Positions 46,850-55,805 of a stretch of DNA of 64,000 nucleotides are shown here, piece by piece. A program made the position numbers and the translations under genes. The notes below the pieces were generated by a model. That model was not told the DNA's origin, made no database searches, and saw nothing but the letters and a program-made list of their open reading frames with translations. Every line of letters starts with the position of its first letter. The first letter of the stretch is position 1. The stretch lies in NCBI RefSeq assembly GCF_988243305.1, contig NZ_OZ547136.1; one strand, written 5' to 3'.

Positions 46850-47042
46850 TATTTTCTCTTTTCTGTTAATTATTGAGAATAATTATTACTTCACTCAATA
46901 AGCTGCGGATATAACATTCTGAACCGCAGCTATTTGTGAATCCTTTCACAGTATAAATTTCCCCACGCGCATAGCCTTAATATCAGCACGCAATATTTAT
47001 TTAGCGTTCGCCTTAATTACTCATAGCATTAAGGAAGATCAC

Positions 47043-48281
47043 ATGCCGCAACAAAATTATCTGGATGAACTCACTCCGGCTTTTACACCGTTACTGGCGA
47101 TTAAAGAAGCCTCTCGCTGTTTATTATGCCATGACGCCCCCTGTAGTCAGGCTTGCCCGGCACAGACCGATCCGGGGAAATTTATTCGCTCAATCTACTT
47201 TCGTAATTTTAAAGGCGCTGCCGAAACAATTCGTGAAAATAATGCCCTCGGTGCCGTTTGTGCCAGAGTGTGCCCGACGGAGAAATTATGCCAAAGCGGT
47301 TGTACCCGTGCCGGTGTTGATACTCCCATTGATATCGGTCGCTTACAGCGTTTTGTTACTGATTTTGAACAACAAACTGGGATGGAAATTTATCAGCCCG
47401 GTACTAAAACGCTCGGCAAAGTCGCCATTATTGGCGCAGGTCCTGCCGGATTGCAGGCCAGTGTGACGCTGACAAACCAGGGTTATGACGTCACGATCTA
47501 TGAGAAAGAAGCACAACCCGGTGGCTGGTTGCGTAACGGCATTCCGCAATTCCGGTTACCGCAATCAGTACTGGATGCAGAAATCGCCCGTATTGAAAAA
47601 ATGGGCGTGACCATTAAGTGCAATAACGAAATCGGTAAAACACTCACCCTGGAGCAGCTGAAAGCGGAAAACCGCGCGGTACTGGTCACCGTGGGGTTAT
47701 CAAGCGGTTCGGGGCTACCACTGTTTGAGCATAGCGACGTTGAGATTGCCGTCGACTTCTTGCAACGTGCACGACAGGCGCAAGGCGATATCAGCATTCC
47801 ACAAAGCGCATTAATTATCGGCGGCGGTGATGTCGCGATGGACGTAGCCAGCACGCTGAAAGTTCTCGGCTGTCAGGCAGTAACTTGCGTAGCGCGTGAA
47901 GAGTTAGATGAGTTTCCGGCAAGCGAAAAAGAGTTTGCCAGCGCCCGGGAGCTGGGCGTTTCGATCATTGATGGATTCACGCCAGTAGCCGTGGAAGGCA
48001 ATAAAGTCACGTTTAAGCATGTACGGTTACCGGGCGAACTGACGATGGCGGCAGATAAAATTATTCTCGCCGTCGGTCAGCATGCCAGACTGGATGCCTT
48101 TGCGGAGTTAGAGCCGCAGCGTAACACCATCAATACACAAAATTACCAGACCCGCGATCCGCAAGTCTTTGCTGCTGGCGATATTGTTGAGGGGGACAAA
48201 ACCGTGGTCTATGCCGTGAAAACCGGGAAAGAAGCCGCCGAGGCGATTCATCACTATTTAGAGGGAGCTTGCTCATGTTAA
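47043..48281 (+). CDS. preT: NAD-dependent dihydropyrimidine dehydrogenase subunit PreT (412 aa)
   Basis: Fe-S cysteine clusters and GAGPAG nucleotide-binding motif; AGGAAG RBS. Confidence 0.9.
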
Positions 48282-52187: not shown

Positions 52188-53186
52188 TTATTTCTTGCTG
52201 AATTCAGCCAGGTTGTCTTTATCTACGCCAACATAAGGTACGCGGACCACTTTGTTGTCGATTTTCCAGTTGGTGCCATCAGCCGCACCTTTGCCATCGG
52301 CCAGGTTTTTCGCCAAATCAAAGGTCGCTTTCGCCTGGTTGTTAGCATCGTTCAGTACGGTGCCCGCCAGTGCACCGGATTTCACCAGCGCCAGCGCTTC
52401 TGGCAGCGCATCGACGCCAAACACCGGAATGCTGGACTTGTTGTGTGCTTTCAGTGCTTCTACCGCGCCCATTGCCATCGCATCGTTGTTGGCGATAACC
52501 ACTTCGATTTTGTTGGCGTTCGGGCCAGACAGCCAGGCGTCCATCTTATCTTTCGCCTGAGCGGTATCCCACATAGCGGTATCTAACTGTAACTGTTCAG
52601 TTTTGATGCCTTTGTCGTTTAATTCTTTAATCACGTAAGTGGTACGTGCTTCTGCATCCGGATGGCCCGGCTCACCTTTCAGCAGTACGAACTGAATCTG
52701 ACCGTCTTTGTTCAGATCCCAACCCTGATTCGCCGCCCAGTGTTTAGCAATCAAATCGCCCTGAATAATGCCGGACTCTTTGGAGTCAGTGCCAACGTAG
52801 TAGGCTTTGTCGTAGCTATCCAGCGCCTTACGAGACGGTTCTTTGTTGAAGAAAACCACCGGCACATTTTGCCCACGCGCTTTCTCAATCACCGTACCCG
52901 CAGCTGCCGGGTCAACCAGGTTGATTGCCAGTGCCTTCACCCCTTTCGCCAGCAATACGTCGATCTGATCGTTCTGCTTGGACTGGTCATTCTGAGAATC
53001 ATTCATCAGCAGCTGAACATCTGGCGCGGCTTTCGCATCTTGCTCAATAGCCTTGCGCACTACAGACATAAAGTTATCGTCGTACTTATAGATTGTTACA
53101 CCAATGCGAGTATCAGCAGCGTGTGCAGCGGCACCGAATAACATGCTGGCCATCACAGCAGACAGGGTTAACACCTTCTTATTCAT
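52188..53186 (-). CDS. mglB: Periplasmic D-galactose/D-glucose-binding protein (332 aa)
   Basis: Signal peptide plus periplasmic-binding-protein ORF. Confidence 0.9.
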
Positions 53187-53437
53187 GGTATCTCCGGTTT
53201 TTCTTATGCAGGGTAGTGCTTGAGATAAATGCTCGGCGGGGCAGTAGAGTTAATGAAGTGTTACTGAACGCCGAAGCTCACTTTTTAAAATTCGTTCTTC
53301 CATGCCCGGTAACGCTCCAGAAAACGGCTTTAATTGTTGTTATGACGCTATTACCTCGGTGAAAGTGATTATTCACTGTTACATACGGGTTACAACGTTA
53401 AAACGGTGCAATCATAGCTATCACATTGTTAAGATAC

Positions 53438-53471
53438 TGTGAAATCACTCACAGATTGAAAGCGGTTACAT
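53438..53471 (-). promoter_or_regulatory. mglB promoter elements: CRP site adjacent to a GalR/GalS-type operator
   Basis: TGTGA-AATCAC-TCACA at 53438-53453; minus-strand ATGTAACCGCTTTCAA (53456-53471) fits the gal operator pattern and overlaps the galS stop codon; candidate -10 TATGAT (complement of 53411-53416). Confidence 0.5.
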
Positions 53472-54506
53472 CGCCTGATTTGTTGAGTTAGTGATCGCCG
53501 CCGCATTCTGGCGCGTTGCGACAGAATGGCGACGCACTAACGTCGGCATAAAACAGTGGCTAGCACGAGGATCAATATTGCCTGCTGCCCCCTGCAAGGC
53601 CAGTTCGGTGGCTAATTTAGCCATTGAAGCAATGGGATAGCGCACAGTCGTTAATTGCGGGTCGGTGTAACGGGCGATGGGAATATCATCGAAACCGATG
53701 ATTGAGAGATGTAACGGAATCGCAATGCCATTATCTTTTAATGCTGTCAGTGCGCCAGCGGCCATATTGTCGTTATAAGCAAATACAGCGGTAAGTTGTA
53801 GATTGCGCCCCAGCAGTTCAACCATCGCCGCCTCACCGCCCGGCATGTCCGGCGTGCCAGTGCCAATCCAGCTTTCCGGCGGAATAATATCCTGCTCTTT
53901 CAACGCACTCATCCAGCCTGCTTTACGCATGGCGTCATCTTCAATGCCGTGACTGGAAGAAAGATAACCAATACGTTGATGACCGTTATTCAGCAACATG
54001 CGCGTCGCCATTCGGGCACCGCTGAGATTATCCAGGCAAACGCAACGATGGGCGTACCCCGGCACAACGCGGTTGATTAACACCATACCGGGAATGTTAT
54101 CCATAAATTGTGCCAGTTCATCGTCACTCAATGCTTTTGAGTGAACAATCAATGCATTACAACGCTGGCGAATTAACACCTCAATGGCGTGACGCTCTTT
54201 TTCCGCTTCATGATAGCTATTGCCGATTAGCACGTATTTCTGATGCTGCTGGGCGACCAGATCCACCGCTTTTACCAGCGCGCCGAAAAACGCATCAGAA
54301 ACGTCCATCACCACCACGCCAATGGTGTCGCTAACCTGAGTTGCCAGCGCCTGGGCATTGGCATTTGGTCGATAATCCAGCTCACTAACGGCTTTCATTA
54401 CTGCTTCACGCGTGTCGGCACTGACCAGCGTGCTGTTATTGAGCACTCGAGAAACCGTTGCCACAGAGACGCCAGCCTGACGCGCTACATCACGAATGGT
54501 GATCAT
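53466..54506 (-). CDS. galS: LacI/GalR-family repressor GalS (346 aa)
   Basis: N-terminal HTH ([24 protein letters not shown]). Confidence 0.9.
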
Positions 54507-54600
54507 ATTCACTACCTGTTATGAGATTGCAGTAAATGACTGCTTGCTGGCGGCTATTTTGTCAGCACTGAATACAGGACTTCGTGAATCGAGTCACAGC

Positions 54601-54616
54601 AATGGAAACGGTTACA
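54601..54616 (-). promoter_or_regulatory. Candidate GalR/GalS operator in the galS promoter
   Basis: Minus-strand TGTAACCGTTTCCA matches GTGTAANCGNTTNCAC-type operator; located about 100 bp upstream of galS ATG. Confidence 0.4.
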
Positions 54617-54647
54617 GCCGTTTTGTTAACGAATGTGATCCAGATCG

Positions 54648-55805
54648 TTATCTTGATGTTTTAGATATTGCCGGTCCGGCAGCACGCAAAGTTAACTGAC
54701 GCCAGAGCCATTCCACCGGCCCCTGGCGGAAGTAACGCAGCCAGATAACAGAGAAGAGGATATTCGCCAGCCATACCGGAATAACAAACGCCAGCAGCTC
54801 CAGACGGTCAAACAGCATAAACAAACCGAGGTGGTAAAAAAGCGTGGTACAAATCAGCGTTTGCAATAGATAGTTGGTTAGTGCCATCCGTCCGACGCAG
54901 GCGATTGCCAGTACCAGCTTAAAGCGGCTTAATTGCGGCCAGAAGCCATAAAACAGCGACGCATAGCCAATCGCCTGAAACGGCGCACTCAGTTCCCGCG
55001 GCATCTGAAGTAAGAAGGCGCACCAGCGATACGCCCAGTCCAGCCGCCATTGCAGGGCGATAGCAGGAAGGTTAATGATCACCCCAATCGCCACCAGCAC
55101 AAAACCAGTACGACGATAGTGACGTAAGCTGAACTGCCCTTTCAGCCAGCCGCTGCGCATCAGCGCCGCACCAATGAGCATCATCCCTGCCAGTTGCCAG
55201 CCATACTGTGCGCCCAGTGCCAGTAAACTGTTTCCAACACCATCGGCACGATTACTGATCGCTTCAACGCCGCCGTGAAGCTTCCAGTATTTTTCATACA
55301 AAATAGCCGATGCATCCGGCGTCCAGGCGCGGCTGGTCTGGCTGTCGGAAATCAGCCCCAATAACATCAAAACGCCAAGCCCCACCAGATAAAGCATGAC
55401 GCCTGTATTAAACAGGCTTTTTACCGATGGCGCATCGCGCACCAGCCGCCAGCAGATTAAGCCCACCAGCCCGTAAGCCAGCAGAATATCGCCGTCCCAG
55501 AACAATAAACCGTGAATAAAGCCCAGCAAGACTAACAGCGTTAACCGCGACTGGATCCAGCGTCTGCCACGGGGCAGCAACATTTGCAGGCCAGCACCAA
55601 ACAGCAGCGCAAAAAGCGTGAGGAATTTCACCTGGCCGATGAGATCGAGAAATGCCCAGGTCCATGCATCCTGCGGCGTAATAGCGCCGTACCAGGCGGG
55701 ATTAAGATAAGCCGCCTTTGGTAGCCCAAAGGCGCTGATGTTTAATAGCAGGATCCCCAGAATGGCGACGCCGCGAACAAAATCGAGCGTGACGTTGCGC
55801 TCCAT
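54648..55805 (-). CDS. yeiB: Inner membrane protein YeiB, DUF418 family (385 aa)
   Basis: Polytopic membrane ORF 16 bp downstream of folE. Confidence 0.8.
   Translation of the reverse strand: MERNVTLDFVRGVAILGILLLNISAFGLPKAAYLNPAWYGAITPQDAWTWAFLDLIGQVKFLTLFALLFGAGLQMLLPRGRRWIQSRLTLLVLLGFIHGLLFWDGDILLAYGLVGLICWRLVRDAPSVKSLFNTGVMLYLVGLGVLMLLGLISDSQTSRAWTPDASAILYEKYWKLHGGVEAISNRADGVGNSLLALGAQYGWQLAGMMLIGAALMRSGWLKGQFSLRHYRRTGFVLVAIGVIINLPAIALQWRLDWAYRWCAFLLQMPRELSAPFQAIGYASLFYGFWPQLSRFKLVLAIACVGRMALTNYLLQTLICTTLFYHLGLFMLFDRLELLAFVIPVWLANILFSVIWLRYFRQGPVEWLWRQLTLRAAGPAISKTSR

Follow-up and report, generated by a model that had tools for sequence, protein, structure and literature searches.

The window analysed here is a 64-kb stretch (64,000 nt) of an Escherichia coli chromosome, the minus strand of which carries folE, yeiB, galS, mglB, mglA, and mglC. 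The Gal isorepressor gene galS (also mglD) occupies positions 53466 to 54506 on the minus strand according to its open reading frame (ORF) and the RefSeq annotation, i.e., 346 codons plus the stop; the gene begins at an upstream GTG in the ORF list and measures 1041 bp in RefSeq. The mglB gene, encoding the galactose/glucose-binding protein, lies on the same strand from 52188 to 53186 (ORF and annotation), and the annotated distance between the two genes is 279 nt. Of the 5426 complete E. coli genomes searched with a 501-bp query around the pair of regulatory sites described below, 5425 contain a match.

The minus strand reads ...CAG GCG ATG TAA at the 3' end of galS, with the stop codon at 53466 to 53468, and it is here that the regulatory sites of mglB begin. 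The mgl operator, a GalS/GalR site with the sequence ATGTAACCGCTTTCAA, covers positions 53456 to 53471 (minus strand) and is supported by the sequence itself, GalR ChIP-chip, RegulonDB, an operator-constitutive (Oc) mutation, and conservation; its centre at 53463.5 corresponds to -59.5 relative to the mglB transcription start (+1). A 22-bp CRP site follows at 53435 to 53456 on the same strand, supported by the sequence, RegulonDB, Reg-Seq, SELEX, and an adaptive mutation. Its core TGTGAGTGATTTCACA, at 53453 to 53438, has two perfect pentamers and is centred at 53445.5, i.e., at -41.5. The operator is the upstream member of the pair, with 2 bp between it and the CRP core, a centre-to-centre offset of 18 bp, and 1 bp in common with the 22-bp CRP site, and the interval from 53438 to 53471 (34 bp) is the exact span of the operator and the CRP core. 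Six of the 16 operator bp (ATGTAA, the last codon Met plus the stop) are shared with galS, and the TAA represents operator positions 4 to 6. A preliminary description of this DNA had named galS and mglB, placed a CRP site and a gal-type operator within 30 bp of the galS stop, and let the operator span the stop codon; the gene identities agree with the ORFs and the RefSeq annotation, the CRP core extends to a distance of 28 bp from the stop codon, and the operator does include this codon.

Motif and binding evidence for the operator and the CRP site

Exact matches to TGTGA-N6-TCACA number two in the 64-kb window, against 0.05 expected, and the gal-operator core TGTAANCGNTTNCA, for which 0.02 matches are expected, likewise has exactly two. 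One of them is in the mgl operator, and the other, at 54603 to 54616, belongs to the operator of galS itself. The other exact TGTGA-N6-TCACA, TGTGAATCCTTTCACA, lies on the plus strand at 46935 to 46950 in the yeiS-preT intergenic region, with roughly 94 nt separating it from the downstream ATG of preT (yeiT) at 47044, and yeiT is among the known CRP targets recovered by genomic SELEX. The gal operator has been described as a 16-bp hyphenated dyad, GTGNAANC.GNTTNCAC, with positions 3, 5, 9, and 15 being critical (PMC5110547). Written in the same way, the mgl operator ATGTAACC.GCTTTCAA retains G3, A5, G9, and A15 together with the whole core TGTAANCGNTTNCA, as expected of a GalR/GalS site, and deviates from the dyad consensus at positions 1 and 16 (A and A, not G and C).

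The binding data coincide with these sites. GalR ChIP-chip yielded a peak at 2240625 with the inferred site TTGAAAGCGGTTACA, which is the plus-strand reading of the mgl operator at 53471 to 53456. Both mglB and galS are CRP targets in genomic SELEX, and Reg-Seq recovered a CRP activator footprint at mglB as well as an RNA polymerase (RNAP) footprint at the annotated promoter. No repressor footprint at -59.5 was seen by Reg-Seq under the conditions used, and the GalR entry carries the mark 'W-confidence'.

Genetic evidence comes from glucose-limited chemostats, in which an operator-constitutive G->T change '3 bp from the end of mglD' recurs, corresponding to 2,238,647 C>A; a later mutation in the CRP site, 2,238,630 C>A, joins it, and the two derepress or enhance mglBAC expression. 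These changes were mapped to the window by way of galS, which spans 2,238,650-2,239,690 in the source coordinates. The first falls on window position 53463, the central G at operator position 9, which is among the positions with known Oc mutations, and the second falls on 53446, position 11 of the 22-bp CRP site, where it creates the consensus T; the base identity fits in both cases. It has also been noted that the repressor and activator sites at mglB overlap in part, as a possible reason for the monotonic rise of mglB activity with cAMP (Kaplan et al. 2008). The comparison with mapped mgl sites that the preliminary description had proposed is thus favourable for RegulonDB, ChIP-chip, SELEX, the Reg-Seq CRP footprint, and the chemostat mutations. 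The mglB promoter region is already known, its sites, their positions, and the transcription start having been characterised previously, and the overlap of the operator with the galS end can be gathered implicitly from publications dating back to 2009 or earlier.

Conservation of the site pair and its overlap with galS

The region was compared across 80 loci obtained by MglB-based retrieval (one genome per species, all Enterobacteriaceae, more than 25 genera). The pair ATGTAACCGnTTyCAA and TGTGAGTrAwTTCACA is present at a fixed 18-bp offset in all 80 species. The operator, the CRP site, a TTAACA in the promoter spacer, the -10 element, and the +1 G show little or no variation and are more conserved than the neighbouring coding sequence. 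Between the operator and the mglB ATG there are 255 to 286 nt, except in a single locus, in which the distance is 479 nt. This exception, Citrobacter amalonaticus S646, has the longer distance because of an insertion of about 194 nt in its mglB leader (around 2240-2435 of that locus), between the conserved leader blocks and the Spot 42 site. The inserted DNA, containing ...GGGGTGAGCGAGCG...CAACGCACCTGTAAGTTGAAGTATGACGAG, presumably represents an ERIC/IRU-like repeat, which it resembles. A 51-bp segment around the sites has the same sequence in 5062 of 5410 E. coli genomes, and two variant sequences that were inspected differ at six positions, three of which are in the last galS codons and none in the sites. 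The galS gene is interrupted by a 1-nt frameshifting insertion in the type-strain draft of E. albertii NBRC 107761 and by two 1-nt indels in C. amalonaticus AUH_CA_2023_1; these are either pseudogenes or assembly errors, and neither locus has any damage to the operator or the CRP site.

The position of the galS stop was located by an anchor-based search and expressed as the distance of its first base from operator position 1. The gene adjoins the operator in all 80 species, with 12 nt or fewer between them, and its stop starts at -15 in 37 loci, at -14 in seven, at -12 in 30, and at -3 in one, i.e., 12 to 15 nt before the operator in 74 of the 80 species. A stop at +3, inside the operator, is confined to four Escherichia loci, the window, and Cedecea sulfonylureivorans (6 of 81 sequences). 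GalS has mostly 340 to 341 residues and ends in ...ITN or ...ITNL/S, in contrast to 346 residues and ...ITNSTNQAM in Escherichia. The codons at this end are AAC TCA TAA AGT TGG GCT ATG TAA in Citrobacter versus AAC TCA ACA AAT CAG GCG ATG TAA in E. coli, equal in frame and length and free of indels. From this alignment, and by parsimony over the 80 species rather than on a rooted tree, the ancestral Escherichia stop (TCA TAA, as in Citrobacter) appears to have been lost by substitution (TCA ACA). With that stop lost, Escherichia galS would run on for five more codons, up to the TAA of an operator that is invariant and constrained by the repressor. The overlap would then have arisen in Escherichia when the stop codon was lost, and a second time, independently, in a Cedecea species. 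Since the sites and their spacing are unchanged in the 74 species with an upstream stop, it can be regarded as a derived by-product that regulation does not need, and it looks incidental rather than a regulatory requirement. The preliminary description had held that the 3' end of galS is physically coupled to the promoter: what stands of this is the adjacency, which is family-wide, and not the literal overlap, which is limited to the 6 of 81 sequences.

The overlap might instead be a selected coupling device, with transcription or translation of galS through the operator modulating repressor or CRP occupancy, either by transcriptional interference or by nascent GalS being delivered in cis. Proximity favours such coupling: with galS within 12 nt of the operator in every one of the 80 species, there is no room for a terminator ahead of the mglB promoter (mglBp), and galS transcripts must cross it. 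Moreover, a terminator scan of the minus strand from the galS stop to the mglB ATG found no intrinsic terminator in the leader, and the only mapped RNA 3' end, at +69, does not score as Rho-type or as intrinsic. However, the operator, the CRP site, and their spacing are identical in the 74 species whose stop lies upstream, the additional Escherichia tail codons vary within E. coli, and Yersinia pestis is reported to retain a highly similar mgl regulatory region even though it is without galS. Effects of read-through would furthermore hinge on adjacency and not on the overlap with the stop codon. Selection for the overlap as such is accordingly considered quite improbable, and an incidental origin of the shared bases is preferred.

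Promoter architecture and transcription start

The mglB transcription start is a G at position 53404 (minus strand), as indicated by a published TSS table (Kim et al. 2012), the geometry in RegulonDB, and conservation, the +1 G being invariant in the alignment of 26 genera. The table gives the start as NC_000913.2 2238588(-) with a 5'UTR of 218 nt and 6 reads, and the last base of its upstream sequence CTGTGAGTGATTTCACAGTATCTTAACAATGTGATAGCTATGATTGCACCG (ending ...TATGATTGCACCG) is window position 53404. RegulonDB, as quoted in the Reg-Seq supplement, places GalR/GalS at -59.5 and CRP at -41.5 at mglB, and each of these positions also gives +1 = 53404. The preliminary description had predicted a start at about 53404, which turns out to be the mapped position exactly; a start far from there would have spoken against it. 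Its leader of about 217 nt was close to, and one nucleotide short of, the mapped 218 nt.

The -10 hexamer TATGAT (53411 to 53416) is near-invariant and lies 7 bp upstream of the mapped +1. No usable -35 element accompanies it: the hexamer 17 bp upstream of the -10 is CAGTAT (53439-53434), with 1 of 6 matches to TTGACA, and the mglB promoter was not called by a consensus promoter scan. The invariant TTAACA of the spacer (53427 to 53432, -28 to -23), recognised from the alignment and the 80-sequence profile, was rejected as a -35 element, being just 10 bp from the -10.

At class II promoters, the CRP site is centred at -41.5, so that bound cAMP-CRP covers part of the -35 region and brings in RNA polymerase by direct contact (the definition of Busby and Ebright). 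The TGTGA-N6-TCACA of mglB is centred at -41.5 from the mapped start, with a recognisable -10 and no usable -35, as is typical of this class. We take the site to be class II by the usual definition, although the Reg-Seq supplement labels it 'class I'. Published evidence that mglB activity depends on cAMP-CRP consists of the Reg-Seq activator footprint, the monotonic cAMP response, and the listing of mglB as a SELEX target.

A promoter further downstream was weighed as the true source of mglB mRNA, corresponding either to a second 5' end at 53326 or to a TTGTAA-16-AATAAT at 53395 to 53368; the CRP site and operator would then act from about -120 and -138, or serve another transcript. The 5' end at 53326 has 9 reads versus 6 at 53404 (Kim et al.), the hexamer pair is a sigma-70-like match returned by the promoter scan, and Reg-Seq found that changing one base near +30 gives rise to a new start. 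That promoter, however, depends on the mutation for its activity, no good -10 is visible by eye upstream of 53326, and this end sits 10 nt downstream of a strong RNA 3' end, which suggests RNA processing. The invariance of TATGAT and the +1 G, the canonical -41.5 position of the CRP site, and the Reg-Seq footprints of CRP and RNAP at the annotated promoter all argue for 53404, and a downstream origin is held to be very improbable. Functionless chance matches have nothing in their favour except that weak CRP-like sequences are generally abundant, and this reading, of practically negligible probability, is already refuted by the counts of two against 0.05 and 0.02 expected per window, by the invariance of the sites in 80 species, and by the ChIP-chip, SELEX, Reg-Seq, and adaptive-mutation data that all map to them.

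The interval 53438 to 53471 is thus very likely the core of cis-acting control sites at mglBp, the promoter of mglBAC, with the dual use of the stop codon being secondary and probably neutral. In the regulatory scheme proposed for this core, GalS and, more weakly, GalR would sit on the operator at -59.5 when galactose is missing and counteract activation by CRP, through steric competition with CRP or, alternatively, by covering the DNA immediately ahead of the CRP site, which at class II promoters is used by the alpha C-terminal domain (alpha-CTD) of RNA polymerase. Since the operator extends from -67 to -52, with 1 bp in common with the 22-bp CRP site, a GalS/GalR dimer should exclude CRP or occupy the alpha-CTD DNA. 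Galactose would free the repressor from the operator. The candidate modes of repression (competition with CRP, alpha-CTD occlusion, or a block of the open complex) are those that we infer from the geometry and brief statements in the literature.

The mglBp of E. coli K-12 (RegulonDB/EcoCyc) is the same locus, with identical sites, spacing, and transcription start, and the window differs from MG1655 just by a few leader SNPs, e.g., CACTTTCACCGAGGTAATAGCG at 53352 to 53360 versus CACTTTTGCCGAGGTAACAGCG in MG1655. The P1 promoter of galETK resembles mglBp in having a gal operator (OE) about 60 bp upstream of the start and directly upstream of a CRP site, and in binding the same repressors, but it differs in its second operator, OI, inside galE and in being repressed through GalR-HU looping. 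For mglB, a single operator is annotated in RegulonDB, and an additional weak site within the mglB gene is given in one 3C study. The galS promoter (galSp) has a matching tandem layout: on the minus strand, its operator CTGTAACCGTTTCCAT (54617 to 54602) is followed by the CRP-like TGTGACTCGATTCACG (54598 to 54583), and the Reg-Seq supplement speaks of the 'same architecture'. It deviates from mglBp in an offset of 19 instead of 18 bp, one imperfect CRP pentamer, and the absence of an overlap with coding sequence. According to a Reg-Seq preprint, galSp also has a site near -95 for an activator that was not identified. Another relative is gal OI within galE (Irani et al. 1983), which, like the mgl operator, is a repressor site sharing bases with coding sequence; unlike OI, the mgl operator shares only 6 of its 16 bp, and these with the repressor's own gene, and does so in a lineage-specific manner.

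The mglB leader and possible further control

The mglB leader extends over 218 nt from 53404 to 53187 (minus strand), as defined by the sequence and the TSS of Kim et al. (2012), and contains conserved blocks. Its Shine-Dalgarno sequence GGAG lies at 53192 to 53195 within the invariant AACCGGAG. Two RNA ends have been mapped inside the leader. The first is the strong 3' end at 53336 (+69), an 'orphan' in Term-seq, which is 130 nt past the galS stop and was recorded as 2240498(-), 150 nt before the mglB ATG, with a count of 92,182 (supplementary files 1 and 3 of Adams et al. 2021). Its scores in that study, 0.44 for Rho and 1.47 for intrinsic termination, put it in neither the Rho-type nor the intrinsic class. 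The second is the 5' end at 53326 (+79), listed as 2238510(-) with a UTR of 140 nt (Kim et al. 2012), which reflects either a secondary start or cleavage of the RNA during processing. Neither end is discussed in its source paper (Adams et al. 2021; Kim et al. 2012). The 3' end at 53336 could stem from galS read-through RNA, or from a processed leader fragment or a stable RNA made up of the first 69 nt or so of the leader, and its combination with the 5' end at 53326 implies a leader RNA metabolism beyond one TSS and one full-length leader.

A candidate Spot 42 pairing region was recognised by RNAduplex and conservation at 53207 to 53235, including the invariant ACTACCCTGCA. In a search restricted to the seed (spf nt 1-26), Spot 42 nt 1-24 paired with the 29-nt stretch 53235-53207 at -24.8 kcal/mol, a value reached by 0.7% of shuffles; for the duplex of full-length Spot 42 with the leader, 35% of shuffles did as well. 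The predicted pairing thus combines seed complementarity near the ribosome binding site with conservation across species, and it agrees with the repression of mglB by Spot 42/Hfq through the 5'UTR in Salmonella, the organism in which this regulation has been shown experimentally.

Searches for structured elements gave negative results. An Rfam scan of 52900 to 54800 at E<=1 returned no family, the leader's minimum free energy in E. coli is not unusual (z = -0.86), and RNAalifold gave an empty consensus for +1 to +80. Over the alignment from the galS end to the ATG, RNAalifold recovered nothing but the palindrome of the CRP site and base pairs between the operator and GGAGCGTTAC, a block in the leader (-8.7 kcal/mol with a covariation term of -0.39 and double changes in just one column). 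The latter was rejected as a structure and judged to be a by-product of a recurring GTTAC motif.

This motif, GTAAC/GTTAC, is the core of an operator half-site and occurs five times in the 285 nt from 53471 to the mglB ATG (53469, 53393, 53382, 53313, and 53264, minus strand), against 0.58 expected (shuffle P = 3e-4). Conserved across genera are ATGTAAC at +21, GCGTTAC at +92, AGTAAC at +141, and the invariant TTAACA of the promoter spacer at 53432-53427. Most genera also have a perfect palindrome, GTGATTAATCAC, at about +28 to +39, which has diverged in E. coli (GTGAATAATCAC, 53375-53364), preceded by GCTGAAACGCTATG, of which the E. coli version (about 53396-53383) has likewise diverged. GCTGAAACGCTATG presumably is a Cra/FruR-like sequence, judging by its resemblance to that consensus. 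The new -10 created in Reg-Seq by one mutation near +30 falls in this region.

There is a slim chance that read-through from galS into the leader, the 3' end at +69, and the GTAAC/TTAAC motifs mark an undescribed layer of control. If so, galS transcription may be coupled to mglBp by read-through or interference, a stable leader RNA may be made, or the motifs may be auxiliary GalS/GalR half-sites. The mglBp locus shows that a textbook promoter architecture, including the exact transcription start, can be recovered from sequence alone. What this study adds to the known promoter is the cross-species comparison, an account of how the stop/operator overlap originated, and a few additional leader features. 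As mglBp is a main target of adaptation under glucose limitation, through mutations in the operator and the CRP site, its exact coordinates are useful. The stop codon shared between galS and the mgl operator would be the outcome of a lineage-specific stop loss, and should not be taken as a designed coupling.
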